A program made the position numbers and the translations under genes. From NCBI GenBank assembly GCA_046753765.1, contig JBHHUN010000001.1:12141-76140 (forward strand): a DNA stretch of 64,000 bases, given 5' to 3'. The notes beneath the pieces were generated by a model that was not told the DNA's origin, did no database searches, and was given only the letters and a program-made list of their open reading frames with translations. Positions 42,101 through 64,000 of this stretch are shown here, piece by piece (within the stretch, counting starts at the first letter, position 1; each line of letters starts with the position of its first letter). The DNA is from Candidatus Dojkabacteria bacterium (GTDB lineage: Bacteria > Patescibacteriota > Dojkabacteria > B142 > OLB20).

Positions 42101-42742
42101 ATGCAGGAAGGAACTGAAACTGCCCAACAGATAGCAAATTCCGAAAAAACCGATCCCAAAAAAGAACAGGCTCTTAAGAATCTACAAGATGACCTGGAAG
42201 CAGAGCTGCAAGACCAGGCAGAGTATACAAAAGGTCGAGTCATGATGTTTGTAGATGTCAGTTTTGTAAACAGTGAGATATTTGGTCAGAAAGATAATCT
42301 ACTATCCGCTCTAAAGATTGAAAGCTTTGCCCTTGCTAACGGAGACAATCTCTTTGAGATTAATGACAATGTGGAAAGTACAAAACTCAAGGTGAATGTC
42401 TCAGATCTGATCGTCGCCGGATCGCTCACAGTAGAAGGCGATCTAGATGTTCTTGGAATCCTCTTTGCGCAGGAGGCTGCAACAAATAGCCTATTTGTTG
42501 AACGAAAAATCAATGTCGGGACAGAAGACCACCAAGCCGCAGGCGAGGTGACTCTTAAAGGTGGTATGACAAAGATCACTGTTGAAAATAATCAAATAAC
42601 TCCATATTCCTCAGTCCATATAACAAAAGATCAGTTTGTCAATTACAGAGTCATAGACATGAAACCCGGAATTGGATTCACTATACAAATTGATGATGCT
42701 ATCGACAACGATACAGTCTTCAACTACTTCATTATTAACTAA
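33191..42742 (+). CDS. Giant secreted or anchored fibre-like protein (3183 aa) built from duplicated modules
   Basis: 9.55 kb ORF with ATG start and an N-terminal hydrophobic signal/anchor (VFTLFASFVIVSALFLLV). At least 8 copies of a LYWGDDL(L/I)CD..Q.NCG...LFTDGG.LTYLT.T.DDF..GG motif. Three large module types are each present twice at 75-85% aa identity. The C-terminus carries a twice-repeated roughly 140-aa domain (AGD.V......GVIST.PG......PLALAGRVPVKV...G.I..GD.L..S..PG.AMK), an acidic coiled-coil tract and a final roughly 160-aa domain. Confidence 0.7.
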   Translation: MLPLHFTVKQLPFRAFYGRLLRVFTLFASFVIVSALFLLVSQTVSATVNSTMNFQGKVVNLSDGTNIVAGSPSCVAAGADTCDFRASIYTDSTGGTLLWQEPQSNVELGDYEGVFNLSLNSVCASWSSPGGSCSGSGLTWGSDSTIYLQIEFDDDGNGDFVSAETFTRKLLTSVPYAYEADQLDGIDSTGFVQLAPGSVQTTGNTTNPLIYLNENGTGTPNLLQLQVAGSDIATINNSGDLTITGDANINGGTINSTSVLTFNDSNTLDIAFSDASNTTLPVGTNSILHALNAASGGGGGLWTINANVTYLTSSGSDLSLASTLVSAFSVDESENLVRVGDGSSSNGKIDFYSSTGDTGRFEYITDTLQWSGGSVRIANNTSVNFGSSDQIQVLYDSTTDTRLEFSDGTNLLLALDDAGTTGDLLVTGTVSIGGSSNDVLATSAAAGAATSSLYWGNQTVCLADGTGCSTDYGLWEALSFNTGANTGTFENDNDVIVGTWAGDDTPLTNTGFVLDSTTADDLFVLDLLGVGDSLYVENNIVAGSGALTLSDSGITDGDSNLVLTATGANVVQISDALTVTGGTATFSGGNVIVQHTTPYDIVIDNSTVGVPTGGNLASDSGYLTLRGNFFDDTPDTDTELDMSLLMDVTDGSTYRLGFYNDGKAAEIGSLDESGNLQVDGTLNLGTNTADVLSVGAGTAANGDLYWGDDLLCDTSQSNCGWAAGGSTLFTDGGTLTYLTQTADDFAIGGSALASPFSVDTDINTVRIGDGTSDVNDPTVTFYASNAVDSGSIIYLDADGFQFSGGDVLVGAASETIAGAGFVLNGDDLFVNGQLGVEGDIYTDADLTLQSDVDTTGVGDITINFGGTNTETIAWIASLDGFQVSDDLLPSTDDALDLGSNTLRWRDLYTGPGTIHVGTSTSDEGTLSYNTTTNDLAIESTGDLVLLSGGGYVGIGTATTTAFLDITAPTTSAAQINLSPSVAVDPSAPVNGDMWYNGTNLNFYNGSVTTDLLAGSSSLWTDGGTLTYLTSTTDDVVFGGTTSAGPFFFDTSAGKLTLNTVGAGAGIALGDDTLLYDGGTNLIQTADSFTIGGQLTVSSTGSSGGLVIGDDTNLYDNGTNLLQTDDSFTVGGALSVTGGAATVSGGGLTVTGGNVLVQGTTPLDVIVDNSTTGTTANSGALYLRGNYFNVSDTEIDMSILLNVTDNTDYKISFYDDGQVAEVGSIDQSGNLQVDGNFNLGTDTADVLSVGTTGSTAIGDLYWGDDLICDSSQANCGIAFGGSSLFTDGGALTYLTQTTDDFSVGGTALASAFSVDVSANTVRIGSGATADAVLSMFASDASTGTITFTTSDRWEFSGGDILLSDDQSMFFGTDADAFFRYDELTDNRLEFGFGANQFGYIDDVAAQTYGDFLFNGTTTLGTGLAGTETALYINPTTGFTGTLLDIDVNGSDIFAVSTTGITANVPATFASAGDVQIANDLAFTNSTSSNITSDAPLYITAGDIASSEDLYLSANNAGYVIVDDRLEVADLIHLGNASANNYLATSVQTNTPTTDLYWGDKLVCDVSEANCGNIWTDSGTVSYLTSTTDDFAIGGTSLTASLSMDVSANLLRVGTGATANGKIDLYSSNGNSARLELTTTDTVELNNAGFVFNQAGDAVDFVIEGDTDANLITADGSTDRVGIGVAVPDAFFDVKPATAGSASINISSSATVNPSVPVDGDMWYNGTNLYFYDGSSTIDILAGGSGSSKWTDGGTLTYLTSITDDLAVGASSAVAPLYIDVDTNLIRIGDGASDVNDPTLTFYASDAVDSGSLIFQDDDSFFLSGGSVMIGAAAETIAGTGFVVDGDDVFIAGMLGVEGDIYSDGDLYIQSDLDTTLAGDISINFGGTNTEILKWDATNDAFSLSDDFLPATNDVSTLGIDTLRWADLFLGPNTLHIGTSTSDEGTVSYDTTANNLLIDSTGNLVLLNGGGNVGIGTTTTNAFLDITAPTTASAQLNLSPSIAVDPSAPVDGDMWYNGTNLYFYDGSSNTDLLAGGGSTLFTDGGAVTYLTSTTDDFALGGSTLAASVFAVDESTGDFYFGSDNTTDPSLLFEASDADAGQIDFTTNDRFELIGAGLLLDDDQSLFFGANADAYFSYDELTDDRLEFGFGANQFGYIDDVTAQTYGDFNFAGTTSLGTALAGTETALYINPTTGFTGTLLDIDVDGADIFTVTSTGITADVPATFNSAGDVSIANDINFTNGSSSTITSLAPLYITAGDAVSNDSLILSAQNAGYVIVDDRLQVEDIIHLGGSADNFLAASSQTNAATDDLYWGDKLLCDASVANCGYVTTALWADGTSGYYSNTESVIVGADAAFSYVTTPGAGDLKVADDFEAADDGFIGGDLVVGASTSSTDTISDAGFVLGGDDLFVAGLLGVEGAIYTDDDLYLQTDIDTTLAGDISINFGGTNTEIFKWDATADAFDLSDDITVNGNITISGAAAGLVYANVATGSAPTCDSTTVGTTIYNRDAAEDGTIYLCRQNTAGAYEWRDITNGAGTPDIAEFVRTNDTTIEAGDIVSVSLEDYQEENIYNRFLVEKSNTTNVGRLMGIISTDPGILLNTANDPNEQQDLTNLRPLALAGRVPVKISAASADIVKGDPISASDKDGQGQKLQGSGMIVGIALEEWTSTSGDTDVMVLIKNTHYDSATEEGTLYLGESGKGLISFNEETGTFEFDSNGDGIPEMSLGENNEIEVAQDVLPKSSPATLTDESGQQITDGIDLGSPEAYFDDVYANTFHGQDLAINNFDVAEEYLVEDMTIMAGDVVRFKKDSSDSLFVERTDEAQDKYAIGVISTKPGLYLKDWQEDRESGRPVALAGRVPVKVTDENGPVHRGDFLTPASTPGYAMKAVRGGVIIGRAMEDFDPDFFDSGDSEMVTATLGSALATAEEEIAELVESGELSDGEATEFLYSIQEEVTAEYDEQEEAEMIENELMQEGTETAQQIANSEKTDPKKEQALKNLQDDLEAELQDQAEYTKGRVMMFVDVSFVNSEIFGQKDNLLSALKIESFALANGDNLFEINDNVESTKLKVNVSDLIVAGSLTVEGDLDVLGILFAQEAATNSLFVERKINVGTEDHQAAGEVTLKGGMTKITVENNQITPYSSVHITKDQFVNYRVIDMKPGIGFTIQIDDAIDNDTVFNYFIIN
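34940..35500 (+). repeat. Intragenic duplicated module C, copy 1 (copy 2 at about 36605-37165)
   Basis: The protein segment ATFSGGNVIVQHTTPYDIVIDNST...LYWGDDLLCDTSQSNCG...VRIGDG is repeated as ATVSGG...VLVQGTTPLDVIVDNST...LYWGDDLICDSSQANCG...VRIGSG. Coordinates are approximate, within about 15 nt. Confidence 0.6.
35485..36205 (+). repeat. Intragenic duplicated module B, copy 1 (copy 2 at about 38541-39265; partial third copy at about 40440-40600)
   Basis: VRIGDGTSDVNDPTVTFYASNAVDSG...INFGGTNTE...LRWRDLY...GDMWYNGTNLNFYNG versus IRIGDGASDVNDPTLTFYASDAVDSG...INFGGTNTE...LRWADLF...GDMWYNGTNLYFYDG. A stretch of more than 30 bp is DNA-identical (38816-38848 = 40496-40528). Confidence 0.65.
37195..37880 (+). 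repeat. Intragenic duplicated module A, copy 1 (copy 2 at about 39462-40150)
   Basis: ASDASTGTITFTTSDRWEF...LEFGFGANQFGYIDDVAAQTYGDF...ALYINPTTGFTGTLLDIDVNGSDIF...DLYWGDKLVCD versus ASDADAGQIDFTTNDRFEL...LEFGFGANQFGYIDDVTAQTYGDF...ALYINPTTGFTGTLLDIDVDGADIF...DLYWGDKLLCD. Confidence 0.65.
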
Positions 42743-42858: not shown

Positions 42859-43353
42859 ATGTATCAACAAAGTCAAAGAGAAGTGATTGGCACTCTGGAC
42901 AGTGATTCTGGGCGTTTAGTCGAGGGGTTGTTAAAACTGATCCTGCTAGTAGTGATCTTTTTGCTTGGTGGTCTTGCATATAAGTTAGCTAATGAGGGTG
43001 GAGTACTTCCTGAACAGTTGTCATCTGGTTCCCGATCGAGTGAGAATGTCAGCGCAGGAGGCAACAGTAGTAGCGAGTTGTCAGTGGAGGAGGCTGTTGA
43101 AAAGATAATGTTGATCTCAACAGATGAAACACCAACGGTTGCGACAATTGTTGATAGTGAAAAACTCAAACAAGCCAACCCGGATTTCTACCAGAACACA
43201 CTAGATGGAGACCAGCTGCTGATTTACAGCAACCGGGCGATCATTTACAGGGCTCAGGACGGTCTGATCATCAATGTCCTCCCCATCACGAGGGATGATC
43301 TAAAGGATTCGGTAACACAAGTTGCTGGGGAAGAGACGGAAGCTCTCGAATAA
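42859..43353 (+). CDS. Single-pass membrane protein with one copy of a roughly 55-aa repeat shared with 43740..44444 and 52657..53781
   Basis: N-terminal TM helix (LKLILLVVIFLLGGLAYKLA). The C-terminal region VATIVDSEKLKQANPDFYQNTLDGDQLLIYSNRAIIYRAQDGLIINVLPI matches the repeats in the other two proteins. No known-family match recognised. Confidence 0.5.
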   Translation: MYQQSQREVIGTLDSDSGRLVEGLLKLILLVVIFLLGGLAYKLANEGGVLPEQLSSGSRSSENVSAGGNSSSELSVEEAVEKIMLISTDETPTVATIVDSEKLKQANPDFYQNTLDGDQLLIYSNRAIIYRAQDGLIINVLPITRDDLKDSVTQVAGEETEALE

Positions 43354-43739: not shown

Positions 43740-44444
43740 ATGCACGCACAAAACTTGCCCACAAACAATCAACCCACTGCAAATCAGATGGGGCATCCCT
43801 CACCAACTTCGGCTCCCTCTAGAGGAAGCAAAATAGCTGTCCTCTTTGGAATTGCAGTTGTCTTGTTTGTCCTTCAATTGGTAACACTGTATTTAGTAGT
43901 GAATCCGCCTTACCTTGCTCAGCAGAACCTTACAAGACAGGTAATAGATGAGGTATCCCAGATGGTCGAAGTAAATCCATTTGAAACACCTATTGTTAGT
44001 GTTGTTGCAGATGCGGAAAGCTTAAGGTCCGCTAATAACATCCAGGGAGATGTCTATGCAAACGCACAGGACGGTGACTATGTTCTTGGATTTTCAGATA
44101 AGATGGTAATCTATCGAAGAGAGACTGGAGAGGTTGTTTATGAGGGGGAGAGTCCCGGATCGATACTAAATAAAAACCAACAGAATCTTAGACAGAGCGT
44201 TATCAACGCAGCTCAAACAAAGGGTCTTATCCCTGAGGGAGAAGAGGTAAATCCACAAATGTCTGTGGTCACAGATCCTGCGGTACTGCGTAGCCAGGAT
44301 GCCAGTTTCTACGCAAACGTACAGGAAGGTGACGTTATTGCTGTATTTCCTAGCAAACAACTGATAGTGCTTGTAAGGGCAAATGAGTCAGGAACATCGG
44401 TTATACAGTCAGGAAGCTATACAACCTCAATAAACTCTAACTAA
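43740..44444 (+). CDS. Single-pass membrane protein with two copies of the shared roughly 55-aa repeat
   Basis: TM helix (IAVLFGIAVVLFVLQLVTLYLVV). Repeat 1: IVSVVADAESLRSANNIQGDVYANAQDGDYVLGFSDKMVIYRRETGEVVYEG. Repeat 2: MSVVTDPAVLRSQDASFYANVQEGDVIAVFPSKQLIVLVRANESGTSVIQSG. Confidence 0.5.
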   Translation: MHAQNLPTNNQPTANQMGHPSPTSAPSRGSKIAVLFGIAVVLFVLQLVTLYLVVNPPYLAQQNLTRQVIDEVSQMVEVNPFETPIVSVVADAESLRSANNIQGDVYANAQDGDYVLGFSDKMVIYRRETGEVVYEGESPGSILNKNQQNLRQSVINAAQTKGLIPEGEEVNPQMSVVTDPAVLRSQDASFYANVQEGDVIAVFPSKQLIVLVRANESGTSVIQSGSYTTSINSN

Positions 44445-45681: not shown

Positions 45682-47754
45682 ATGGCTAAACAGCTACATA
45701 ATCTCCTTCTTGGAAAACATTTCGGGATTGAGACAACGCTAGTGGATCATAAAGACAGCGGATACAAATTAAAGAACGCCACCCTATTCAGAATTCCTCA
45801 GTACCTAACACCCAAGCATTTAGACGATTCAGAAACGATTGGGCGTGACATCATTTATGCTAACGATGCAGACACCTGGGGGACAAAACTGTCGGCCAGG
45901 TATATGATTGTACCAAACCAATCGAGCAGTGTAGAGATTTCTCAGCTTAGTCAGGTACTTGATAGAAAACTGGCGGTGATCGAGCTGACGTTTGACTACA
46001 TAAAAATAACGTCAGACTCTGACGACGTGATGATCCCCTTTGACGGTGAACAGCTCTCCCTCACGAAGAGCGTGCGAAAGTTAGCTAAGGATATGGGACT
46101 CAGTAACTCAAAATTGACATCGGCGCTAATTAACGCTCCCGTAGTTGCAACAGACGTTCTCTCAAAAGTGTTTAACGCACGGTTGCTGATGCAGATTCTG
46201 CGTTCCCAATCTATACAACTTTTAGAGTTTGAGCAGGTGATATTTACTGGTGAGATGGTCTGGAGTAGATGGGTTGATATCTCAGGGATACTTGCGATAT
46301 TTGAGCTTATCTTTGCAGGCAGAAAAGTTGAGATTCTCATTGACTTCAACGCGATTTTTCAACTTTTACTAATGTCAGAATTGAAGATAAAAGAATTGAG
46401 TCGACTGAACGGTGAGCTCCTGAAGCCTCAGGTTACGTGGATAGATGACAGGTCGCTTCTGACCAAAAATCGAAAACTGCATGAGTTGGATCTCAAGAAA
46501 AAGGGGGGAGAAAAAAAACTAATCCTTACGAAAGACAGGATCGGACTGTTTGATCTTAGAGAGAGTGGATATAAGTTAGCTGGAAGAGAAATTACGAGGT
46601 ATATCTATATCAATGTGTTCGTTAGTGTTGCTAGGCTTGTCGATAGCGCGAATACAAAAAAATACGAACAGGCATGGGTGCAACCGTTGGAATGGGATAG
46701 TCAGTATGCAAATGTAAAATATTGGCCTCTGCCAAGACTATGGGTAGATGAGTCACAACACATGTTGAGCCAAAGTGATTTCTCGAGCTACAGTCTGGAT
46801 CTCAATAAGGGAAGCAAGGTAAGCGACAATCAAGACTTTGGAAAGTATACAAGTAGTACAATGACGGTTTTCAATTACCAAAGTCATGCCGGTGAAATTA
46901 AAAGTCACTTGCAGGTTAACGATCACCAGCATGTAAAAAAGGGATCGCGGCTAACGATAGTTCCTACACTGGGAGGTGTCTGGGATAAGTACCTAACTGC
47001 GCCACACGACGGCAGAATTGATCTCAGGCTCATTGATGATGGAATAATTCTTCTTAAGGTAGATGAAGAAAAAGCTCTTAACTTCAGGTTTCCGATGCAT
47101 ATTAGTAACAAGCTGAAATCGGGTGGATTTGTTTTTAAAGCAACATCACTAAACTTCCCCCTGGCACAGTGGTCTGGCAGACAGGTCTCTGGCTATTTGG
47201 CATCTTCTGTCACAGAGGTTGATTCTGGTCAGAAGATCATAATAATGGACGATGTTTCAGAGTTTGACTTGAGCATTGAGAAGATATTTGAGAGGCAGAT
47301 CGCCGCGATTCTATTTCGCAGGTCTTCACGAAACTCATATGTAAACTTCATAAAATCCAATATCAGGCAGTTGAAGGTCTTGTCCTTTGGATTGCTAACT
47401 GGGTTTGAAGAGAAGATGGAAGCAGAGATAAAACTAAAGCTAGAAGAGTATCTGGGCGAGTTTGCTTTGATCGATAGGGGAGCACTCAGTATTCCATTAA
47501 ATGTCTCTAGATCAAAATTTGTAATGGGTAATAGTGACGACACTCGGCAGTTAAGCTTTAGTCTAAAGGATTTTACCGGTCAGCTTTGTAAGGGAGAAAC
47601 AATCAAAGTTTTTAGTTATCTTGACACAGAAGCTTATGTTAGAATAGAGAAGGTTCATTCCGACAGTGATGCACTTGGGGTTAATAGCACAGGTGCATTT
47701 GACTTTAATATCATTAATTCACAGCCCTTAATCTTAAGATATGGAACAGACTAA
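45682..47754 (+). CDS. Hypothetical protein (690 aa), no recognisable domain
   Basis: Long clean ORF with ATG start, no TM or signal peptide. It sits where rplI would be expected after rpsR. Its 3' end overlaps the ctpA start by 14 nt. No motif I can assign. Confidence 0.5.
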   Translation: MAKQLHNLLLGKHFGIETTLVDHKDSGYKLKNATLFRIPQYLTPKHLDDSETIGRDIIYANDADTWGTKLSARYMIVPNQSSSVEISQLSQVLDRKLAVIELTFDYIKITSDSDDVMIPFDGEQLSLTKSVRKLAKDMGLSNSKLTSALINAPVVATDVLSKVFNARLLMQILRSQSIQLLEFEQVIFTGEMVWSRWVDISGILAIFELIFAGRKVEILIDFNAIFQLLLMSELKIKELSRLNGELLKPQVTWIDDRSLLTKNRKLHELDLKKKGGEKKLILTKDRIGLFDLRESGYKLAGREITRYIYINVFVSVARLVDSANTKKYEQAWVQPLEWDSQYANVKYWPLPRLWVDESQHMLSQSDFSSYSLDLNKGSKVSDNQDFGKYTSSTMTVFNYQSHAGEIKSHLQVNDHQHVKKGSRLTIVPTLGGVWDKYLTAPHDGRIDLRLIDDGIILLKVDEEKALNFRFPMHISNKLKSGGFVFKATSLNFPLAQWSGRQVSGYLASSVTEVDSGQKIIIMDDVSEFDLSIEKIFERQIAAILFRRSSRNSYVNFIKSNIRQLKVLSFGLLTGFEEKMEAEIKLKLEEYLGEFALIDRGALSIPLNVSRSKFVMGNSDDTRQLSFSLKDFTGQLCKGETIKVFSYLDTEAYVRIEKVHSDSDALGVNSTGAFDFNIINSQPLILRYGTD

Positions 47755-52656: not shown

Positions 52657-53781
52657 ATGGCAAAAAAAGCCCCAAAAAGTAAGAAAACTAGCAAAAGAAA
52701 ATCTAGTAAAGCAAAAAAGTCAGAGAAAGAGACAGTAAAAAGGTCGGCAGAGAAAGATAAAGCAGAAAACTCAGATAAGTTTGTTCCTACGTTTCTTGGT
52801 GGTGCCAAGTCAAAAGCAGCCGCTAAGGCCAAGAAGGTGGAAGAGGTGGAAGAGGATGTTGTCGAAGAAGCCCCTGCCGAAGAAGAAGCCCCTGCTGAAG
52901 TTTCTGAGGAGAGTGAAGTAATAGGGAAAGAAACCGAAACAAATGCAGAGCCAGAAGATCAACCAGCAGGAAGCAGATTCAGTTCTCTTATGCGGGCAAA
53001 AGGTGAGGCAGACGAGGGTGCGATCGGTGGAGATGAGGAGGAAGACAAGGGGGAGAAAAAAAGCAAGAAGAGTTTCTATATCGTTGTTGGAGTATCACTT
53101 GTTTTAATAGTAATTGCTTTTGCCTATTTGCTTATTTCCCGGAATAATCAAACTTCAGAAGTAACACCAACGGATGATCAGATGACGACCGACACAACTG
53201 AGGTCGAACTTGTTCGGAGTACAGTCGATCTGTTGGCAGAGGTTGCTGAGCTCCCCAATGAGATCCCACTTGTTGCAACTATCAACGATTTGGAACAGTT
53301 TAAAGAAGTCGATGCAGCTTTTTATGCGAAAGCCTATATTGGTTATAAGGTTATCATATATCAAGAGTCAAATATGGTTTTTCTGTTCAATGAGACTACC
53401 AATAAGGTTGTAAATATCGGGACGCTAAGTCAGGTGCCGTCAATAGATGAGATTGAACTCGAAGAAACAACTGGCACGGTTGATGAGATTTCCGGACTAA
53501 CAATCTTGATTTTGAATGGAACAACAGCTCCTGGTATAACCCTCGGCTATCAAGGGGAGATAGAAGATCTTAGTGGCGATTACACTGTCACCGACAGGGC
53601 CACAGCTGAGATCCTTGGGTATGCTGAAACAAAGCTGTATGACCTCACAGATGGTACAAAAGAAAACAATATTAAAACTCTTGCAGATGCTCTTGGGATT
53701 GAAGTGGTCGAAGGTCTACCTAATGCCGAACTAGAATCAGATACGGATGTCGTGATAATCTTGGGAGAAGACAGGATTTAG
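52657..53781 (+). CDS. Membrane protein with K/E-rich N-terminal tail, one copy of the shared roughly 55-aa repeat and a C-terminal LytR_C-like domain
   Basis: The N-terminal 130 aa are Lys/Glu/Ala-rich and of low complexity. TM helix (FYIVVGVSLVLIVIAFAYLLI). Repeat: LVATINDLEQFKEVDAAFYAKAYIGYKVIIYQESNMVFLFNETTNKVVNIG. The C-terminus LTILILNGTTAPGIT...TKLYD...TDVVIILGED resembles the LytR_C pattern (V.VLNGtg..G.A......v.vvLG.D). Confidence 0.55.
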   Translation: MAKKAPKSKKTSKRKSSKAKKSEKETVKRSAEKDKAENSDKFVPTFLGGAKSKAAAKAKKVEEVEEDVVEEAPAEEEAPAEVSEESEVIGKETETNAEPEDQPAGSRFSSLMRAKGEADEGAIGGDEEEDKGEKKSKKSFYIVVGVSLVLIVIAFAYLLISRNNQTSEVTPTDDQMTTDTTEVELVRSTVDLLAEVAELPNEIPLVATINDLEQFKEVDAAFYAKAYIGYKVIIYQESNMVFLFNETTNKVVNIGTLSQVPSIDEIELEETTGTVDEISGLTILILNGTTAPGITLGYQGEIEDLSGDYTVTDRATAEILGYAETKLYDLTDGTKENNIKTLADALGIEVVEGLPNAELESDTDVVIILGEDRI

Positions 53782-53875: not shown

Positions 53876-54433
53876 ATGGTTTTACGCAATGTAAAAGGAA
53901 ACCTAGTCCTTGAAGGTAAGGACGTTAAGGTGTTAGTAGCTACAGCCAAGGGCAAGGATGCCGGAGGCAAGGTTGAACCTGACATCATACTGTCAAACAG
54001 AGATGATTTACAGCCTACGGAGGGCCAGAGTTTAATAGATTCCGCTGGTGAATATGAGATTAAAGATGTTTTTGTTTATGCATTAAGTACAAATGGAGAT
54101 AAATTAGTAGATCTGTTCAGCATCGACCTTGAGAATATAAAGATAGTATATGTTGATGAGCAGACCCGCCAGATAGGAAAGAAGGTGCTTGACCAGGTAG
54201 GTATAGCGAATATTGTAGTGATCGATATGGAAAACAGTAGTCTCGAAGAGAAGGTGAATGTTATCCGTGTGCTCGATCCTGAGTATCTAATACCTCTTGG
54301 TTCGCAAGAAGTGATTAAAAAGCTGGCCAAGCAGTTGGAGCTTGAAATTCCTGATACAGAGAAGAAATTCAAGATCAGGAGTTCAGAATTGAGCGAAGAA
54401 GATTATGGGCTGAAGCTGGTACTATTGCAATAA
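53876..54433 (+). CDS. Hypothetical protein (185 aa), histidine-free, weak resemblance to a degenerate MBL-fold
   Basis: ORF with ATG start directly upstream of dnaB, in the position rplI usually occupies. No L9 signature. The pattern KVLVATAKG...PDIIL / GEYEIKDVFV loosely recalls small MBL-fold hydrolases, but the protein contains no His at all. Confidence 0.4.
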   Translation: MVLRNVKGNLVLEGKDVKVLVATAKGKDAGGKVEPDIILSNRDDLQPTEGQSLIDSAGEYEIKDVFVYALSTNGDKLVDLFSIDLENIKIVYVDEQTRQIGKKVLDQVGIANIVVIDMENSSLEEKVNVIRVLDPEYLIPLGSQEVIKKLAKQLELEIPDTEKKFKIRSSELSEEDYGLKLVLLQ

Positions 54434-55840: not shown

Positions 55841-56206
55841 ATGGGGAAGAAACTACTAATTGTTGAGGACGAGAAGCCCATAGCACGCGCGTTGGAGCTG
55901 AAGCTTTCTAACTCGGGGTTCGAAGTGACTGTAGCCCTAGATGGCCAGAAGGCGATTGATCTGGTAGATAACGGTGAGTTTGACCTCATCCTACTGGATC
56001 TGGTTATGCCAAATCTGGATGGCTTTGGATTTCTCACGCAGCTGAAAGAGAAAGGGAAAAAGATCCCCGTTATTGTAACTTCCAACCTAAGCCAGGATGA
56101 AGACATCGAGAAGGCCAAACAGATGGGGGCAGTTGGATACTACGTGAAATCTAACACACCGCTCGCTGATATCGTAGATAAAATCAATCAATATTTCGCT
56201 AAATGA
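55841..56206 (+). CDS. Stand-alone response-regulator receiver domain (CheY/PilH-like)
   Basis: 121 aa. Receiver motifs (LIVEDEKP; DLILLDLVMPNLDG; VIVTSNL...K). No output domain. ATGA overlap with pilB. Confidence 0.8.
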   Translation: MGKKLLIVEDEKPIARALELKLSNSGFEVTVALDGQKAIDLVDNGEFDLILLDLVMPNLDGFGFLTQLKEKGKKIPVIVTSNLSQDEDIEKAKQMGAVGYYVKSNTPLADIVDKINQYFAK

Positions 56207-57864
56207 GACTGGATGACAAACGCATACGGGATCTACTGCTCAAGAACAGTTACGTAAGTAAAGACGACATCAAAGCAGCTGAGAAGTATGCAAAAGAAAG
56301 AAATGCGACCGTTGTAGACTACCTGCTCAAGGAGGAATTGATTAATAAGGACCTTCTGGGGCAGGCGATAGCAGAGTTCTACAAGGTAAATTATGCTGAC
56401 CTTAACACTAACATCCCTACCCGTGAAGATGTACTTAAGATTCCTGCAGATATTGGAAAGAAATATCGGCTGGTCATAGCAAACCAAACCACAGACAGCT
56501 ATACGATTGCAACTGATAATCCTCAACAAAAAGGACTGTTACCGGCACTTAAAGATCTTTTCAGAAATAAAAAAATAACTCTAGCATTCTCAATCCCAGA
56601 AGACATCGATGCGTCTCTTGTGCATTATCGTGAACCCCTCGAAACCAGGTTTAAGAAGATTCTTGAGAACTCTGAGAGTGTTGCGCCTGAGGTTGTAGTT
56701 GAGATAATTGATGATGCAATAGTTGATGGGGCCTCGGATATTCATTTTGAACCACAGGAGAAAGATGTTCTAATCCGTGTCAGAATCGATGGTGTATTGC
56801 GTGAAGCTGCCCGTATAGGTAAAAAGTACTACGACAATATTCTAAACCTGATCAAAGTAAACGCACATATGAGAATCGATGAGCACAATGCAGCCCAAGA
56901 TGGTTCGATGCGAATTGTTAAGGGCGACAGGAGAGTTGACATGCGTGTGTCTGTCATGCCCACCCTCGACGGTGAGAAGATCACTGTCAGGATACTCTCG
57001 GAATATGTAAGCAAGTTCTCCCTCTCTGACATAGGTTTGTCCGAACGAGACCAGGATCTGTTTATCGAAGCCGGAAAGAAGCCATTTGGGATGATTCTGG
57101 TTACTGGTCCAACTGGGTCAGGAAAAACGAGTAGCCTATACTCTCTAATCAGGATTTTAAACACTCCAGAGGTAAATGTAACGACAATCGAAGATCCTGT
57201 TGAATACAAAATCAAAGGCGTGAATCACATTCAGGTTAACACTCAAACAGAACTTACTTTTGCAAAGGGTTTGAGGTCAATCGTCAGGCAAGATCCTGAT
57301 ATCATCCTAGTTGGAGAGATACGTGACCAGGAGACAGCCGAAATAGCTGTTAACGCTGCACTGACCGGACATCTTCTATTATCAACATTTCATGCTAATG
57401 ACGCTGCAACCTCTATTCCGAGATTGCTTGACATGGGAATTGAATCGTTTCTGCTTGCATCAACCTTAGAGCTGGTTGTGGCACAAAGACTGGTCAGAAA
57501 GATCTGCCTTGCTTGTCGTATCAGCAGAAAATACACAAGAGCAGCTCTTGTAAAAGAGCATCCCTTTCTCGATGATTATCTATCTAAGAAGAAGAAAGAG
57601 TTTACACTCTATGACACAAAGCCCTGCAAAGCGTGTCCGGGGGGTGGTTTTCAGGGAAGGACTGCAATCTTTGAGTTCATTAAAGTGACAAGGGAGATGC
57701 GGGATTTAATCCTTCAGGACCCCTCTACAAATGAGATTCTTGACCTGGCAAAAAAACAGGGTTTTGTCACAATGTTCGAAGATGGTTTGGATAAGGTTTT
57801 CAATGGAATTACCACATTGGATGAGCTTTTGCGTGTGGCTAAGCCACCGGAGACCCATGCTTAA
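56203..57864 (+). CDS. pilB: Type IV pilus assembly ATPase PilB (GspE family)
   Basis: N-terminal GSPII_E_N region. Walker A (GPTGSGKTS). Walker B/Asp box (DPDIILVGEIRD). His box (LLSTFHAND). Tetracysteine (CLACR...CKACPGGG). Confidence 0.9.
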   Translation: MRLDDKRIRDLLLKNSYVSKDDIKAAEKYAKERNATVVDYLLKEELINKDLLGQAIAEFYKVNYADLNTNIPTREDVLKIPADIGKKYRLVIANQTTDSYTIATDNPQQKGLLPALKDLFRNKKITLAFSIPEDIDASLVHYREPLETRFKKILENSESVAPEVVVEIIDDAIVDGASDIHFEPQEKDVLIRVRIDGVLREAARIGKKYYDNILNLIKVNAHMRIDEHNAAQDGSMRIVKGDRRVDMRVSVMPTLDGEKITVRILSEYVSKFSLSDIGLSERDQDLFIEAGKKPFGMILVTGPTGSGKTSSLYSLIRILNTPEVNVTTIEDPVEYKIKGVNHIQVNTQTELTFAKGLRSIVRQDPDIILVGEIRDQETAEIAVNAALTGHLLLSTFHANDAATSIPRLLDMGIESFLLASTLELVVAQRLVRKICLACRISRKYTRAALVKEHPFLDDYLSKKKKEFTLYDTKPCKACPGGGFQGRTAIFEFIKVTREMRDLILQDPSTNEILDLAKKQGFVTMFEDGLDKVFNGITTLDELLRVAKPPETHA

Positions 57865-59261
57865 TGAAAATTGATAAAACTGCCCCCAAAAAGAAAAAGA
57901 AGTTAACTTTTGCTTCTAAAGTAAAGAGGGTGCTTACAACTCCTATAGGGGGACTAACTAAAGAAAAGGAGTTGTTTATCCAAAACCTCTCAATGCTTAT
58001 TACCTCTGGGCTGGATGTAATAACAGCTTTGAAAGCCACGCAGTTTGATATCCGTTCCAGACGAATGCGTGAGCTGACGGATCAGATTACCGCAGATGTT
58101 AACGCGGGATCGCCTATGTGGAAAGCATTTGAAGAAAATAATCTTCTCCCCAGCTATATGGTTGCTCTTGTTAGAATTGGTGAAGAGACCGGGAAGCTCC
58201 CCGAGAACTTAATAATCATTGTTGAACAGCAACAAAAAACAAGACTGTTCAAATCGAAAATCATTTCAGCAATGATCTACCCTGCGATAATATTTGGCCT
58301 GAGTATCTTTATAGGGATCGGGATCTTTGTATTTGTCCTGCCGAGACTTTCTAACGTCTATAACGCACTTGGTATTGATCTTCCTTTTATCACAAAGGTA
58401 ATGATATTTACAGGGACGTTTCTGCGTGACTACGGAATTATCGTTTTACCTCTTGCTGGTTTATTAATAGCAATAGTCTTTTACTTCCTTTTTGTGAGAG
58501 AGCGGAGTAAGCATGTTGGCCAGCGAATGATCTTTTCGATCCCTGCGTTGAGAGGGATCGTCAGGAATATCGAGATTGCCAGGTTTGGCTTTATGTTCTC
58601 AACTTTGCTTGAAGCAGGACTGCCAATCCTGGATGCAATTTCATCTTTAGGCAGGTCAACAGGTTACTATAACTACAGTAAATTCTATCGCCATCTCGAA
58701 CGGATGATTGAGGAGGGCTATACTTTTCAACAGGCGTTCAAGAGATTTAAAAAAATAGAAAAGATCTTTCCGGTACCAATACAACAGATTGTAATTGCCG
58801 CTGAAAACTCTGGAAGGCTAATGAAATCTTCTTCGCAGATAGGCACAAGTTTTGAAGAGAAGATCGACTCCTCGAGCAAGAATCTTGCAGTCGTTCTTGA
58901 ACCATTAATGCTCATTATCGTGTGGCTGGGTGTTGTGTTTGTGGCTCTTTCGGTCATATTCCCTGTTTATAATCTTGTTGGTGGAGTTGGTCAAAGTAAC
59001 GGTAATGGGTCGGTTTCGTCTCCAGTGGTTGATTTCAACAAAGCAGGAACACTCACAGTCGTGTCTGATCAGGAGCAGGTAAATGTATACAAAGACCCAG
59101 CAGACGAATCTCCCGTAGAAAGTACAATTGAGAGTGGAATTACCCTAAGATTCACGGCGACAAAAGACGGTTGGGTGAAAATTGTGATTGATGAAACTAC
59201 TCAGGATACAGGATGGATTCAAGAAGAACTGGTTCAAATAATAGTTGATCTATCAGAATAG
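57864..59261 (+). CDS. pilC: Type IV pilus platform protein PilC (GspF family) with a C-terminal SH3b-like extension
   Basis: Two GspF repeats (LSMLITSGLDVITAL...; LLEAGLPILDAISSL...). 3 TM segments. An extra roughly 85 aa follow the last TM (VNVYKDPADESPVESTIESGITLRFTATKDGWVKIVIDETTQDTGWIQEELV). TAATG overlap with pilB. Confidence 0.85.
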   Translation: MKIDKTAPKKKKKLTFASKVKRVLTTPIGGLTKEKELFIQNLSMLITSGLDVITALKATQFDIRSRRMRELTDQITADVNAGSPMWKAFEENNLLPSYMVALVRIGEETGKLPENLIIIVEQQQKTRLFKSKIISAMIYPAIIFGLSIFIGIGIFVFVLPRLSNVYNALGIDLPFITKVMIFTGTFLRDYGIIVLPLAGLLIAIVFYFLFVRERSKHVGQRMIFSIPALRGIVRNIEIARFGFMFSTLLEAGLPILDAISSLGRSTGYYNYSKFYRHLERMIEEGYTFQQAFKRFKKIEKIFPVPIQQIVIAAENSGRLMKSSSQIGTSFEEKIDSSSKNLAVVLEPLMLIIVWLGVVFVALSVIFPVYNLVGGVGQSNGNGSVSSPVVDFNKAGTLTVVSDQEQVNVYKDPADESPVESTIESGITLRFTATKDGWVKIVIDETTQDTGWIQEELVQIIVDLSE

Positions 59262-59263
59262 CG

Positions 59264-59710
59264 ATGACAAAGCAAAGACTACAGCAAGCGTTTACATTAT
59301 TCGAGCTACTCCTGTCGATGTCGCTGTTGGCAATGGTTGCAGCTTTTTCAGTACCGCTCTACCAGAGTTTTCAGACCAGCAACGATCTTGAGTTGACGGC
59401 CGATATAACTACTCAGTCACTCAGAAGAGCGCAGTCATTGGCTATGAGTGGTGATGGTGATGCAAATTGGGGTGTATATATCCAGAACGGGAGTGTCACG
59501 TTATTTCAAGGTGACGATTACGCCACGAGGGATACAAGCTTTGATGAAGACCTGGAGATTAGCGACAAGATAAACCTCTCAGGGCTAAGTGAGCTCGTTT
59601 ATGAGAAATTTACGGGTGATCCTTCAGCGACAGGTACGATCAATCTCTCCATAGCCAGTGGCGAAACAAGAATTATTACGATTAATTCAAGGGGTACAGT
59701 AGATTTCTAA
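59264..59710 (+). CDS. Prepilin-type minor pilin/pseudopilin (GspH/FimT-like)
   Basis: Class III signal: MTKQRLQQA | FTLFELLLSMSLLAMVAAF, with Glu at +5. 148 aa. Confidence 0.7.
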   Translation: MTKQRLQQAFTLFELLLSMSLLAMVAAFSVPLYQSFQTSNDLELTADITTQSLRRAQSLAMSGDGDANWGVYIQNGSVTLFQGDDYATRDTSFDEDLEISDKINLSGLSELVYEKFTGDPSATGTINLSIASGETRIITINSRGTVDF

Positions 59711-59711
59711 G

Positions 59712-62261
59712 ATGAACCGGAACAAGAAATTAAAATCATTTAGTCTTGTAGAAGTACTGTTGGCAATGACGTTGCTGGGTATTATCATGATGTCGTTGGC
59801 TGGAGCTCTTGGCTTCGGTCAAGAGAGCAGCCTTGCTGCTGGCAATACTGCAAGAGCAAGTTTGATCGCTGATGAGGGGGTTGAGGCTGTAGATAATATT
59901 GCCGATGAGGACTTTGCGAATCTTGTCGATGGTACGTACGGACTTGCTGTGTCAGGAGGGGTCTGGACGTTCTCGGGAACGAGTGATACTACAGATATTT
60001 TCGAGAGAGTAGTCACGATTTCAACGGTTGATACGTATACTAAGCAGGTAACATCTGAGGTCACCTGGAGCCAGGGGGCAGGTCAGCTACCACGAGTAGT
60101 TACGGTTGACTCGTACGTCTCTGACTGGTCTCGACTTGTGGTTACATCAAATAGCACATTCCGAGCAACCGAATACTACCTGGGAACTGGCGTTTTTTCG
60201 GGAAATTCGTATAGCCTTACTTTGAATCAGGACCTTGAAAGTAATTACTTTGTTATCGTTCAGGGGAGTGACGGCAACGGAAGTCGCAGAGGGACCCGTG
60301 GACCAGATGAAAATTACGTCTCGCTTACAGCTGACCCATTTGGGACAGGTGCCCTCGGAACATCGGGAGGAACGGCTATCCTTGGTTTCACTAGACAGAA
60401 CAGTGTTAACAGCTGGGTAGGGGTAGTAACAGTTGTTGAGTGTCTTGGAGACTGTAATGCCTCTGGGTTTGAACTGTTGGATGTTGAGAGGGTGACTCAT
60501 TCAGGCACAGCAACATCGGGTAGTGTTACAACTACTTCCTGGTCAGATATTGGTCAGGTGATGTTGATGGGTGGGTTCAATGGTTCGGGTTGTGACACAA
60601 CCCAGACAAGGAGTTTTAGGTCCAAAGTGTGTCATGTGAGGATGTATCCTTCAGGATCAAATACAGTAAACTGGACTCGTAACTCCGGTGGTGCCTCGTT
60701 GAGAACTGCAACCAGCACAACGATGGTAGTAGAGTGGGGCAGTGAGTGGACCATCCAGAGGGCAAACGTGACAGGAAACAACGGTGGTAACGGTGCTGAT
60801 GCCACTGGAGAGTACTCAAACGGGGCCATTTCAGGTGTTGCCAGAGATAACACCTGGGTGTGGGGCACTGGACACACTAACGACCAGGGGATCGGTGATG
60901 CAGCCGAAGGCGTGCTGGTTACTCTGGGTGACGGGGTCAATCAGAATGGAACAGAAACGCAGGTGTCCGTTGGAATGGAGTACGGAGGGAATTCCATGAA
61001 TTTCGAGGTTTATGCGCTCACACATCCCGATCTGGCAGTTGACTATCGCTTCAAGGCAGATGGGCATGCTGGCAATCTGACACTAGATACTACAGTAGAC
61101 TCTGCGTCGGATGTTGATGCGCGCATGGCGTTGATTTATAACGGCCAGAACGGGACCGGAAACGCCTATCCACGTCCGCACTTCTCGGCGCGGTACATAA
61201 ACAACACTACGGTCAGGGCTGAACGAAGACGCACAGGCCAAAACTGGCCTGCATGGATTCAGGGGATTAACTTCTCTGCTATTACCTATAGTACGGGGGG
61301 CGGTGGTACCGGCGACTGGAGTGCACCGCTTCAGCAAAGCCAGATCAACCTGGCAGGCAATGAAAACGCTCTGGGGGTTAGGGTGCAGGGAAATTACGCT
61401 TACGTTGTAAGGGACATCGCCGGCACAAATTTCGTAGTTGTAGATATCAGTAACCTATCAACCCCTTTGGTAGTTGGATCCCTGAGTTTACCTGATAAAC
61501 CGACATCTGTTGCTGTGGGTAGTGCTTATGTAGGCAGCAAAAGTAATTCGGGGGAGTTGCAAATAGTTGATGTTTCAACACCATCCAGTCCGAGCCATGT
61601 CGGAACATACAATGCTGCTGGAGACAAAGATGCTAAGGCGCTAACTGTTGATGGAACAACGGTTTATCTTGTTAAGAAGAAGGAAGGTGGTGGTGATGAG
61701 CTGTTTATTATTAATGTTTCGATACCGGCCAGTCCATCGCTAATCAGTTCACTTGAGCTGGGTGACGAAGCGAAAGGTGTGGTTAAGATAGGCAACTATC
61801 TCTACATTGGAAATAAAAGCAACTCCCAGGAACTGCAGGTTATCGATGTAACTACTCCCGCAACCCCAAGCATTGCAGGCAGCCTGGACTTGAGCGGGAA
61901 TGACGATCCTGAATCTATTGATGGTGCCGGATCAATGATAATACTTGGCCGAAGAAACGATGTTTACGTAATTGATATCTCAACCCCAACTTCACCAACT
62001 GTATTAGGCTCATTCAATGCCGGTGGCAAAGTAAAGGGTGTATCATACCATCCTTCATCAGATTACATTTTTCTGGCAACCGAGAACGGCTCACAGGAGT
62101 TTCAGGTCGTTGACATCTCATCCCCTGCAAGTATTACTTTGGTAGGAGGACTTAATGTTTCCGGGAAACTAAAGGGCATTGACTACTCTCCGGGACTGGA
62201 TAGGGCGTTTGGGGCAAGTGATTCAAACTCAGAAGAATTTATTATCTTTCAGCCACAGTAA
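59712..62261 (+). CDS. Giant PilV-like prepilin (849 aa) fused to an LVIVD-repeat beta-propeller
   Basis: Class III signal: MNRNKKLKS | FSLVEVLLAMTLLGIIMMSLAGALGFGQ (PilV-like). The C-terminal roughly 330 aa carry at least 5 LVIVD-type repeats (GNYAYVVRD..., FVVVDISNLSTP, LQIVDVSTPSSP, LQVIDVTTPATP, VYVIDISTPTSP, FQVVDISSPASI). Confidence 0.7.
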   Translation: MNRNKKLKSFSLVEVLLAMTLLGIIMMSLAGALGFGQESSLAAGNTARASLIADEGVEAVDNIADEDFANLVDGTYGLAVSGGVWTFSGTSDTTDIFERVVTISTVDTYTKQVTSEVTWSQGAGQLPRVVTVDSYVSDWSRLVVTSNSTFRATEYYLGTGVFSGNSYSLTLNQDLESNYFVIVQGSDGNGSRRGTRGPDENYVSLTADPFGTGALGTSGGTAILGFTRQNSVNSWVGVVTVVECLGDCNASGFELLDVERVTHSGTATSGSVTTTSWSDIGQVMLMGGFNGSGCDTTQTRSFRSKVCHVRMYPSGSNTVNWTRNSGGASLRTATSTTMVVEWGSEWTIQRANVTGNNGGNGADATGEYSNGAISGVARDNTWVWGTGHTNDQGIGDAAEGVLVTLGDGVNQNGTETQVSVGMEYGGNSMNFEVYALTHPDLAVDYRFKADGHAGNLTLDTTVDSASDVDARMALIYNGQNGTGNAYPRPHFSARYINNTTVRAERRRTGQNWPAWIQGINFSAITYSTGGGGTGDWSAPLQQSQINLAGNENALGVRVQGNYAYVVRDIAGTNFVVVDISNLSTPLVVGSLSLPDKPTSVAVGSAYVGSKSNSGELQIVDVSTPSSPSHVGTYNAAGDKDAKALTVDGTTVYLVKKKEGGGDELFIINVSIPASPSLISSLELGDEAKGVVKIGNYLYIGNKSNSQELQVIDVTTPATPSIAGSLDLSGNDDPESIDGAGSMIILGRRNDVYVIDISTPTSPTVLGSFNAGGKVKGVSYHPSSDYIFLATENGSQEFQVVDISSPASITLVGGLNVSGKLKGIDYSPGLDRAFGASDSNSEEFIIFQPQ

Positions 62262-62263
62262 AG

Positions 62264-62779
62264 ATGAGAAAACCCAGAACAAGAAAAGCATTTACTTTGG
62301 TTGAAATTATCCTTTATGTCGGACTGGTCTCCATGCTTTTGGTTGTAGTGGCCGGATTCCTCACATCTGTGCTTCAGTCGCGAGAACGTTCTGAAACAGT
62401 ATCAGAGGTGGACAGTCAGGGCGTGAAGGTTATGCAGGACATAATTCAGACAGTTAGAAACGCACAGGCAATAAACTCTCCAACACAAGGTAACTCGGCT
62501 GCAACACTTTCGCTTGATGTTGTCGATGGTGGGGCAGACCCTACTGTCTACGACCTGTCAGGTGGAGCACTCACAATCACCGAAGGAGGCGGCGCGGTAG
62601 TAGACCTGACTTCTGGCAGGGTTACTGCCTCGGGGCTTGTGTTTGAAAATTTGACTCGCCCGGGCACAGACGGCATAGTAAGAATAGAATTCACCCTCAC
62701 CCACGTTAATCCTGAAGGCAGATTTGAGTACGATTATGCGCAAATATTTTACGGCTCAGCAAATCTGAAACAGAATTAA
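62264..62779 (+). CDS. Prepilin-type minor pilin/pseudopilin
   Basis: Class III signal: MRKPRTRKA | FTLVEIILYVGLVSMLLVVVAGF. 171 aa. Confidence 0.7.
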   Translation: MRKPRTRKAFTLVEIILYVGLVSMLLVVVAGFLTSVLQSRERSETVSEVDSQGVKVMQDIIQTVRNAQAINSPTQGNSAATLSLDVVDGGADPTVYDLSGGALTITEGGGAVVDLTSGRVTASGLVFENLTRPGTDGIVRIEFTLTHVNPEGRFEYDYAQIFYGSANLKQN

Positions 62780-62782
62780 AAT

Positions 62783-63166
62783 ATGAAGGCATACATATCT
62801 TTAATAACAGTAATAATAGTGAGCTTTGTCGCAGTGGGCATCACTGTCACATTTATTATGCTTGGTATTGGGGCGACGCAAACAAGTGAATCACTCGAAC
62901 TTTCAATAAAGGCAAAAGCCCTTGCAGATGCCTGTGCTCAGGATGGGCTCGAAACTATAAGGGAGAACACAAGCTACACTGGTACAACTAATTTATCACT
63001 TGGTGAAGGTAACTGTTCTTTCACTGTGACAAATCAGGGTGGTGAGGTACGTAGAATTGAAGTAACTGGCACGGTCGACACAGTTATCCGTAAGGTACTA
63101 ATTACAACAAGTCAGCTAAACCCACAGATACTGATTTCAAGCTGGCAGGAAGTTGCAGATTTTTGA
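62783..63166 (+). CDS. PilX-like minor pilin (PilX_N-type N-terminus)
   Basis: An N-terminal hydrophobic segment is followed by GATQTSESLELSIKAKALADACAQDGLE, which matches the PilX_N pattern (Q.S......A...AEAGLE). 127 aa. Last gene of the pilin run. Confidence 0.45.
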   Translation: MKAYISLITVIIVSFVAVGITVTFIMLGIGATQTSESLELSIKAKALADACAQDGLETIRENTSYTGTTNLSLGEGNCSFTVTNQGGEVRRIEVTGTVDTVIRKVLITTSQLNPQILISSWQEVADF

Positions 63167-63282
63167 GTAATCACAAATTGAATAAAAGACTGTCCGAACA
63201 AATAAATGAGCTTCTTGGCGATGATTATCAGGTTCCTCCCGAACTGGAGGGAATATTTGAGAAAATAAATTCTCAATATGAT

Positions 63283-64000
63283 ATGTGCGATAAACACTCG
63301 CTTTACGAGATGATTTTCAACAACGTTGGAGATATCATCACTTATGTTAGCAAGACCGGTAAGATCCTGGATGTTAATAAGAAAGTCGAAGACATTCTCG
63401 GCTATAAAGCAGATGAACTCATAGGTCAGAACTTCCTCACTCTTGGAATTCTCAATTCAGACAATCTCAAGAGGATGGCGGCTTTGTTCAAAGAGGGGAT
63501 GATGAAAGGCATAGTTCAAAACCCGGTCGAGGTAGCAATAAACGCAAGGGATGGTCATCTCGTCCATTTTGAAGTTCGTACAGGCGTTATTAAAAAGGAG
63601 GGAAAGGTTGTTTCAATGTTCAGTATCCTTCGAGATATCACAATTAAGAAGCTTGCCGAAAAAAAGGAGAAAGAGGTTACGCAGCAACTATCAGAAAATA
63701 ACTCCATACTGAAGATCATTGCGGACACTTCGACTAGTTTTGTCAACGTCCAATCTGGTGAATTGACTAATAAGATTAGTGAAGCACTGGAGCTGCTCGG
63801 TAATTCTACGGATGCTGACAGGTGCTACATCATAATGTACTCCGATGATTTGACGACAATGACGAATACGCACGAGTGGGTAAGAGAGGGTATATCATCT
63901 CAGAAAGAGCACCTCCAAGCAATAGCCTCTGATAGTTTTCCCTGGATGCTTGAGAAGATGAAGAGAAGTGAAAAGGTTATGTTCTCCAATCTTGATGATA
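63283..64000 (+). CDS. PAS-domain sensor protein (probable histidine-kinase N-terminus), 3'-truncated by the window edge
   Basis: The frame is open from 63163 to the window end. First ATG at 63283. An alternative TTG at 63163 overlaps the upstream stop. PAS-like segments (YEMIFNNVGDIITYVSKTGKILDVNKKVEDILGYKADELIGQNF; DADRCYIIMYSDDLTTMTNTHEWVREG). Confidence 0.55.
   Translation, partial: MCDKHSLYEMIFNNVGDIITYVSKTGKILDVNKKVEDILGYKADELIGQNFLTLGILNSDNLKRMAALFKEGMMKGIVQNPVEVAINARDGHLVHFEVRTGVIKKEGKVVSMFSILRDITIKKLAEKKEKEVTQQLSENNSILKIIADTSTSFVNVQSGELTNKISEALELLGNSTDADRCYIIMYSDDLTTMTNTHEWVREGISSQKEHLQAIASDSFPWMLEKMKRSEKVMFSNLDD

Follow-up and report, generated by a model that had tools for sequence, protein, structure and literature searches.

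A probable type IV pilus assembly-and-priming operon with a trimodular minor pilin in a Candidatus Dojkabacteria genome

Described pilus systems and the Dojkabacteria locus

The closest described counterparts of the locus reported here are the two type IV pili (T4P-1 and T4P-2) of Nanosynbacter lyticus TM7x, a member of the Saccharibacteria (PMC11623550, PMC9894109). The locus lies at the end of a 64,000-nucleotide (nt) stretch of a Candidatus Dojkabacteria genome, hereafter the window, and this lineage (formerly WS6) belongs like the Saccharibacteria to the candidate phyla radiation (CPR, or Patescibacteria). Both organisms combine PilB and PilC with minor pilins that resemble pseudopilins of the type II secretion system (T2SS), and in both a large minor pilin bears a beta-propeller (PilX2 of TM7x; PilX1 has a jelly-roll-like domain). 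The large TM7x pilins have non-canonical signal peptides, a further likeness to the window, while PilX2 was needed for host binding and not for filament extrusion, and the pilus genes of cultivated Saccharibacteria are split over four loci (PMC11623550). Several differences were also noted: the TM7x loci possess PilM, PilN and PilO, with locus 1 also possessing PilT and PilD, none of which are in the window; the propeller is of the RCC1 type in TM7x and of the LVIVD type in the window; and the large pilin of the window is an I-type subunit with a recognisable cleavage motif that includes Glu5 (the glutamate at position +5 after cleavage). Neither a leading receiver gene nor a fusion of PilC to a bacterial SH3 (SH3b) domain, both features of the window, was found in the searched passages of the TM7x account (PMC11623550).

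Modular type IV pilins, in which a pilin module is joined to domains that are not specific to pilus biology, include PilB and PilC of S. sanguinis, and the survey of Raynaud et al. 2021 contains an 860-residue pilin of Candidatus Falkowbacteria with 12 LVIVD (IPR013211) motifs (PMC8179133). The largest pilin of the window, of 849 amino acids (aa), has this make-up and adds a 380-aa domain between pilin and propeller. Sets of four minor pilins, abbreviated H-I-J-K, are found as GspH-I-J-K in the T2SS, FimU-PilV-PilW-PilX in type IVa pili (T4aP) and ComGD-E-F-G in competence (Com) systems, and complexes of these proteins, capped by a subunit without Glu5, prime filament assembly (PMC10191384). 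The same four-gene order was found in the window, where the folds of the I- and K-type proteins match GspI and GspK and where the last subunit is likewise without Glu5. Compared with these sets, the K-type protein of the window is minimal (127 aa) and without the alpha-domain insertion of GspK, the adhesin would be fused to the I-type subunit rather than exist as a separate PilY1-type protein, and the major pilin, encoded before the set in the classical systems, is encoded after it in relatives of the window and is absent from the window itself. The PilY1/PilC tip adhesins of T4aP, which position a beta-propeller at the tip via a minor-pilin complex, offer a functional analogy. The propeller of PilY1, itself no pilin, comes from a different family (IPR008707), whereas that of the window is of the LVIVD type and covalently joined to a pilin module. 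PilY1 homologues were not found.

On the evidence set out below, the locus is considered, at a probability of roughly 0.8, to be the assembly-and-priming operon of a T4aP-like type IV pilus without a secretin. Nine tightly packed or overlapping genes, starting at position 55841 of the forward strand, were identified as follows (a slash marks the prepilin cleavage site):

55841-56206, forward strand: stand-alone response-regulator receiver, 121 aa, CheY-like, without an output domain (Response_reg, PF00072, E 2.6e-24)
56203-57864, forward strand: PilB-type extension ATPase, 553 aa (T2SSE, E 4e-119)
57864-59261, forward strand: PilC/GspF platform protein, 465 aa, with a C-terminal SH3 domain (two T2SSF stretches, E 9e-42; SH3_4/SH3_3)
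59264-59710, forward strand: H-type (GspH/FimU/ComGD-like) minor pilin, 148 aa, leader MTKQRLQQA/FTLFE (N_methyl)
59712-62261, forward strand: I-type (GspI/PilV-like) trimodular minor pilin, 849 aa, leader MNRNKKLKS/FSLVE (N_methyl; LVIVD, E 1.4e-27)
62264-62779, forward strand: J-type (GspJ/PilW/ComGF-like) minor pilin, 171 aa, leader MRKPRTRKA/FTLVE (weak N_methyl; position)
62783-63166, forward strand: K-type (GspK/PilX/ComGG-like) minimal pilin, 127 aa, N-terminus MKA/YISLI, without Glu5 (fold comparison)
63163 (TTG start) past 64000 to window-equivalent 64359, forward strand: PAS-GAF protein, 398 aa as a whole (PAS_9, E 4.7e-12; TIGR00229, E 1.5e-21)
Beyond the window, cut at the contig end: Cache-HAMP-PAS sensor gene, overlapping the PAS-GAF gene by 17 nt (Logan contigs L001/L003)

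The 849-aa and 127-aa proteins match NCBI proteins from a Candidatus Dojkabacteria metagenome-assembled genome at 100% identity. The end of the PAS-GAF gene was placed by mapping to L001. Logan contigs added 1.9 kb downstream of the window and 2 kb upstream, the latter carrying MreC and neighbouring genes. A first-pass annotation of the window, made from the sequence and its open reading frames (ORFs) alone, had described this run of overlapping or abutting genes; every ORF was recovered with the same coordinates and length, and the ORF list gives junctions of 4-nt or 1-nt overlaps and otherwise gaps of 1-3 nt. The identification of PilB and PilC, which had been set beforehand as a test, was confirmed by the hidden Markov models (HMMs) listed above, as were the receiver and the PAS sensor placed on the two flanks (PAS models, E 1e-11 to 1e-21). 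Of the components that define type IV filaments, a GspE/PilB ATPase, a T2SSF platform and pilins with class III signal peptides, in which a short hydrophilic leader precedes ~20 hydrophobic residues and Glu5 is usual, were thus found. A major pilin was found neither in the 64 kb nor in the next 1.9 kb, and the window ORFs scanned gave no match to a prepilin peptidase (A24).

Operon family, minor pilins and cleavage sites

A metagenome scan using a PilC alignment gave 80 loci, which were mapped by ORF and HMM. The consensus order of the related loci was found to be receiver, PilB, PilC, H, I, J, K and major pilin (A), often followed by another receiver, and the order recurs in approximately 50 independent metagenome loci as well as in L005 and L006, which hold the close relatives of the 849-aa pilin (54% identity for L005). 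Scanning GTDB representative contigs for PilC returned only an unrelated Desulfobacterales locus. The locus of the window is an ordinary member of this widespread CPR operon type, which comprises a motor, a platform, an HIJK tip set and a modular adhesin pilin. Its peculiarities are the loss of the in-operon major pilin, four cleavage sites without Gly and an extra domain in the tip pilin.

The four consecutive pilin-fold genes are assigned to an H-I-J-K core minor-pilin set in its conserved order. Assignment of the I- and K-type proteins was tested by fold comparison, in which the pilin module of the 849-aa protein gave a GspI/PilV-type fold and the 127-aa protein a GspK/PilX-type fold, in keeping with their earlier labels of PilV-like and PilX-like. 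The H-type assignment is weakly supported: the best named NCBIfam matches of this protein are ComGD (1e-6) and PRK10506 (4.5e-6, full length), both below their curated cut-offs, and its gene occupies the first pilin position after pilC in approximately 75 related loci. Assignment of the J-type protein is mainly positional, its gene being conserved between the I- and K-type genes of related loci. Among 39 J-type orthologues from related operons, ComGF was matched by 29, PRK10557 by 27 and T2SS protein J by two, while the 171-aa protein of the window matched none of these at E 0.01. PDB searches, whether run with the 849-aa protein or with profiles of the H-, J- and K-type families, gave matches confined to the N-terminal helix of pilins. 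The conserved gene order suggests that the H-, I-, J- and K-type proteins may form one complex at the filament tip, with the 127-aa K-type protein as its predicted cap.

The I-type protein was divided into three modules by BLAST against 119 homologues, with the last also recognised by its LVIVD match:

59712-60149, forward strand: pilin module, aa 1-146
60150-61289, forward strand: X domain, all-beta, 380 aa, aa 147-526
61302-62258, forward strand: LVIVD beta-propeller, aa ~531-849 (LVIVD, E 1.4e-27)

Other layouts observed among the homologues were pilin and X (~525 aa), pilin and LVIVD (~470 aa), pilin, X and FN3, and pilin, LVIVD and X, which constitutes domain shuffling on a single pilin scaffold. 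Among 68 I-type pilins from the 83 loci examined, the window among them, LVIVD was found in 37 and X in four, with both occurring together only in the window and L005. The X domain gave no match in Pfam or NCBIfam, no sequence relative in the PDB and no detectable internal repeat; it was modelled as all-beta with very high confidence, and its structural matches were weak. Of 1.84 billion representative clusters, 316 matched it at E <= 0.001 and 222 of these at E <= 1e-30; almost no weak matches were seen, which indicates a tight and sharply bounded family. Identity ranged from 35 to 67% among the 150 matches listed, and the X domain of the window retains every invariant residue of the family. 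Carriers of X are mostly surface proteins of 1000-5000 aa with DUF11, LamG, cadherin-like or FN3 domains, and matches named by NCBI originate from CPR, Verrucomicrobia, Acidobacteriota, Acidimicrobiia, Planctomycetes and others. While the X domain itself is uncharacterised, LVIVD-bearing CPR pilins are already known. The LVIVD pilin of another CPR lineage (PMC8179133), together with the role of PilX2 in host binding (PMC11623550), makes the interpretation of this protein as an adhesin at the filament tip a well-precedented one.

Regarding the major pilin, a fifth pilin gene was found after the K-type gene in L005 (7839-8306) and L006 (13278-13736), encoding a canonical pilin of 152-155 aa (KG/FTLLEILLVIGLLAILAAIV...). 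It belongs to a CPR family of PilA proteins for which more than 4800 database matches were obtained (E <= 1e-5). This family was observed to be unusually conserved for a pilin, with nearly all of the 120 matches listed showing 62-74% full-length identity. Of 46 loci, 43 have a major pilin gene next to the K-type gene on its 3’ side, the exceptions being the window, L080 and L083. The first-pass annotation had stated that the pilins of the locus are of the minor type only and that the major pilin, PilD, PilT and PilMNOQ are not in the window, and this agrees with the motif scan described below and with Pfam scans of the window's large ORFs, which revealed no PilD (peptidase A24), PilT, PilM/N/O/Q or further pilin. 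As none of 78 loci (window included) was found to have a second T2SSE ATPase within 10 kb, having no PilT beside the operon is normal for the family. The absence of PilT, PilD and PilMNO from the vicinity of the operon is the family norm, and only the missing major pilin is unusual.

Variation in pilin content was also seen elsewhere among the related loci. In L018 (11403-14574; near-duplicate L069), a pilin of 164-197 aa is present in six tandem copies that separate pilC from the H-type gene. Ala is found at position -1 of two of these paralogues, and a seventh copy lies between the I- and J-type genes. In L021, L055, L066 and L068, proteins of 553-570 aa have an N-terminus matching the major-pilin family and represent large modular major-type pilins beside a normal copy of 146-151 aa.

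A six-frame motif scan of the 64 kb identified only the H-, I- and J-type prepilin signals (QQA/FTLFE, LKS/FSLVE and RKA/FTLVE), whose -1 codons are GCG, TCA and GCA. Glu at +5, which had been chosen beforehand as the test of these signals, is present in all three. The 127-aa protein has a fourth prepilin-type N-terminus (MKA/YISLI) with Ala at -1 and without Glu5, so that none of the four window pilins has Gly at this position (Ala, Ser, Ala, Ala). In homologues, Gly is found at -1 in 32 of 33 relatives of the giant pilin, in at least 90% of 70 members of the K-type family and in 117 of 119 members of the major-pilin family among the matches listed. Of the more than 4800 matches to this last family, 120 were listed, and only P0305 among them showed Ala or Ser at -1 (Ala); this sequence, of JGI/ENA source, is probably not from the Dojkabacteria genome studied.

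Pilins with Ala or Ser at -1 nevertheless make up 25 of 262 (~9%) Glu5-bearing pilins of related operons, the three of the window included. In L081 (10518-13345), Ser is found at -1 of the I-, J- and K-type and major pilins while the H-type pilin keeps Gly, so that the residue at the cleavage site has shifted across a second genome. In L026 and L027, Ser in the H- and I-type pilins occurs alongside Gly (in L027, that of the J- and K-type and major pilins). Since Ser and Gly are mixed within single operons, one peptidase must accept both residues, and given these operons and the ~9% of pilins without Gly, no special peptidase needs to be proposed. The archaeal peptidase PibD accepts Gly, Ala and Ser at -1, and PilD of P. 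aeruginosa reportedly tolerates Ala, and partly Ser, in work attributed to Strom and Lory in 1991. A non-Gly residue at -1 clusters by genome, and is a minority state that is neither an anomaly nor unprecedented. The earlier description of the -1 residues as Ala, Ser and Ala was accurate as to the residues themselves. Ala is a recognised alternative to Gly, as leaders of class III signal peptides end in Gly or Ala (PMC10191384), and the minority noted above exists among relatives. Ser at -1 falls outside this Gly/Ala rule, yet recurs in related CPR operons.

Platform, motor, regulation and neighbourhood

PilC of the window was found to consist of two T2SSF domains with transmembrane (TM) segments at 141-159, 192-210 and 348-366, followed by a linker of approximately 30 aa after the last TM segment and a bacterial SH3 domain at aa 404-457 (nt 59073-59234). 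The 99-residue tail is net acidic and both T2SSF regions are rich in Lys and Arg. The topology of GspF proteins is established and fits an extracytoplasmic tail, so that, together with the positive-inside rule, the SH3 domain is predicted to lie outside the membrane. The tails of 83 related PilC proteins fall into two length classes, one of at most 31 aa with 54 members (at most 8 aa in 52) and one of 90-153 aa with 29. Each of the 26 distinct sequences among the long tails gave an SH3_3 match behind a linker rich in Pro, Ser and Thr, and the fusion of PilC and SH3b is thus present in 29 of the 83 (35%), for example in L005, L007, L008 and L010. The usual role of SH3b domains suggests that this domain may anchor the PilC platform to the cell wall. 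A literature search found no paper joining PilC, SH3 and peptidoglycan, and neither this fusion nor the leading receiver, both features of the family, was turned up in the passages and literature searched.

The PilB protein possesses the Walker A motif GPTGSGKT, the tetracysteine motif CLAC...CKAC (CxxC...CxxC) of extension ATPases and an N-terminal MshEN/GspE-N-like domain of approximately 150 aa. Against NCBIfam models it scored 484 bits for PilB (TIGR02538), 455 for GspE, 253 for ComGA and 170 for PilT, with the PilB score staying below the equivalog cut-off of 676 bits. A c-di-GMP-binding MshEN motif was considered for this protein and is not claimed, the Pfam match being marginal (23.2 bits against a cut-off of 23.1) and the glycines of the motif being replaced on inspection by eye.

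The receiver retains the acidic pocket EDE, the phospho-acceptor Asp53, T80/S81 and K103. Its stop codon overlaps the start of pilB by 4 nt, and a receiver gene was found directly 5’ of pilB in 44 of the 54 related loci with enough sequence. At the other end of the operon, the PAS-GAF start overlaps the stop codon of the K-type gene by 4 nt. The PAS-GAF and Cache-HAMP-PAS genes are thus coupled to the pilin genes as the receiver is translationally coupled to pilB, and genes for receivers and Cache proteins are likewise seen on the flanks of related operons. It is plausible that the phosphorylated receiver controls PilB directly. Counts of promoter and terminator signals across the operon were not above the expectation from shuffled sequence.

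The other large ORFs of the window were found to encode mainly housekeeping proteins, namely PBP2, DprA, TopA, S2, Tsf, RRF, RseP, DnaX, RecR, CysS, CCA, YchF, SSB, two proteases, PrmC, PrfA, L31 and DnaB. The dprA gene (2165-3214) lies between those of PBP2 and TopA; apart from the pilus genes, no other gene related to competence was seen in the window. An island of giant proteins was observed at 18304-42742, consisting of three consecutive ORFs that encode 2717, 2139 and 3183 aa. LamG_3 and DUF2341 domains abound in the first two, with the first also containing a region resembling the receptor-binding part of clostridial neurotoxins, and the third (33191-42742) has no Pfam match. The proposal that this island and the pilus operon form a joint surface-attachment neighbourhood found no support, as 13 kb of housekeeping genes separate them and an ORF of at least 1000 aa lies within 10 kb of the operon in only three of 83 related loci. 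A link through shared domains was also unsupported, since the X domain is not found in the window's own giant proteins. No Pfam match at E <= 0.01 was obtained for the ORFs at 45682-47754 (690 aa), 42859-43353 (164 aa), 43740-44444 (234 aa), 52657-53781 (374 aa) and 53876-54433 (185 aa), of which the 374-aa ORF has a Lys/Glu-rich N-terminus of low complexity and one hydrophobic segment.

Competing interpretations and biological meaning

If the locus is a type IV pilus operon, its products could act as follows. A prepilin peptidase encoded elsewhere would cleave the prepilins after Ala or Ser, and the four minor pilins would then assemble as a tip and priming complex on PilC, beneath which PilB would polymerise a major pilin that is also encoded elsewhere. 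The finished filament would display the X domain and the LVIVD propeller at its tip as an adhesin for contact with a host cell or substrate. With no PilMNOPQ genes at the locus, the putatively extracytoplasmic SH3b domain of PilC may tether the platform to peptidoglycan, while the receiver and the PAS-GAF and Cache-HAMP-PAS sensors would switch PilB on or off upon a signal.

Several points weigh against this interpretation. The major pilin gene that 43 of 46 loci have immediately after the K-type gene is absent here, and neither a major pilin nor a prepilin peptidase, PilT or PilMNO was found in the 64 kb, the 1.9 kb downstream or the 2 kb upstream. A filament would thus be built only if the major pilin and the peptidase are encoded outside the sequence read. 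For the 171-aa protein of the window, the J-type label is purely positional. Furthermore, the placement at the tip, adhesion through X and LVIVD, the binding of SH3b to the wall and the coupling of receiver and PilB are deductions from sequence.

An alternative is that the operon encodes a Com-like pilus or pseudopilus for DNA uptake, a short filament capturing DNA for a cell unable to make nucleotides. The best named matches of the H-, I- and J-type proteins are among ComGD, ComGE and ComGF, the gene content is that of comGA-GG without a major pilin (PMC10191384, table), dprA is in the same window, and Saccharibacteria are naturally competent (PMC10187176). However, the ATPase is of the full-length PilB/GspE type with its N-terminal domain and scores far higher against those models (484 and 455 bits) than against ComGA (253 bits), and the major pilin is last in the operons of relatives, where ComGC would be expected first. 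The tip pilin bears adhesin-type domains rather than a known DNA-binding module, and dprA is 53 kb away amid housekeeping genes. This alternative, which is compatible with adhesion, is regarded as unlikely. Still less probable is a secretion device in the manner of the T2SS, in which a pseudopilus piston made mainly of the four minor pilins pushes out proteins and forms no long fibre. In its favour, scores against the GspE and GspF models come close to those for PilB and PilC, the best structural matches of the I- and K-type subunits are T2SS pseudopilins and no major pilin is at the locus. These structural matches, however, depend on the choice of minor pilins for which crystal structures exist, the operons of relatives include a canonical major pilin of the PilA type, and the window ORFs scanned contain no GspC, D, L, M or secretin. 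CPR cells are also not known to have an outer membrane that such a system would have to cross, and this explanation is given very little credence.

The operon could also be a decaying remnant, having lost its major pilin and building no pili, with Gly at -1 drifting to Ala or Ser under relaxed selection. This would account for the major pilin being absent where 43 of 46 loci have one, and for four sites without Gly where three families of homologues keep it (32 of 33, 117 of 119 and at least 90%). All nine genes are nevertheless intact and still translationally coupled, the 849-aa protein retains the invariant residues of X and a full LVIVD propeller, and Glu5 and the hydrophobic helices are unimpaired. 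Ala is moreover accepted at -1 (PMC10191384), and CPR operons that do possess a major pilin also use Ser or Ala (Ser in four of the five pilins of L081; mixed residues in L026 and L027). Decay is accordingly judged improbable, ranking between the Com-like and secretion explanations. A more far-reaching view joins the unusual features into a self-sufficient minimal CPR pilus machine, in which PilC-SH3b would replace PilMNOP by anchoring to peptidoglycan. X would be an all-beta adhesin fold not described before, passed back and forth between the tip pilins of CPR and the giant surface proteins of other phyla. With no in-operon major pilin and with Gly replaced by Ala or Ser at four sites, the HIJK set might then work with a filament subunit that is encoded differently, or as a short adhesive stub. 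Taken as a whole, this combination is speculative and doubtful.

As a type IV pilus operon, the locus does not overturn current understanding. Type IV pili are the main candidate organelles for host attachment and DNA uptake in CPR/Patescibacteria, and the locus adds an example from the Dojkabacteria, while its comparison with relatives defines a recurrent CPR operon grammar of receiver, PilB, PilC, H-I-J-K and major pilin. The PilC-SH3b fusion (approximately one third of operons), the leading receiver (approximately four fifths) and the X domain provide handles on how the pili of the smallest bacteria are anchored, regulated and targeted.

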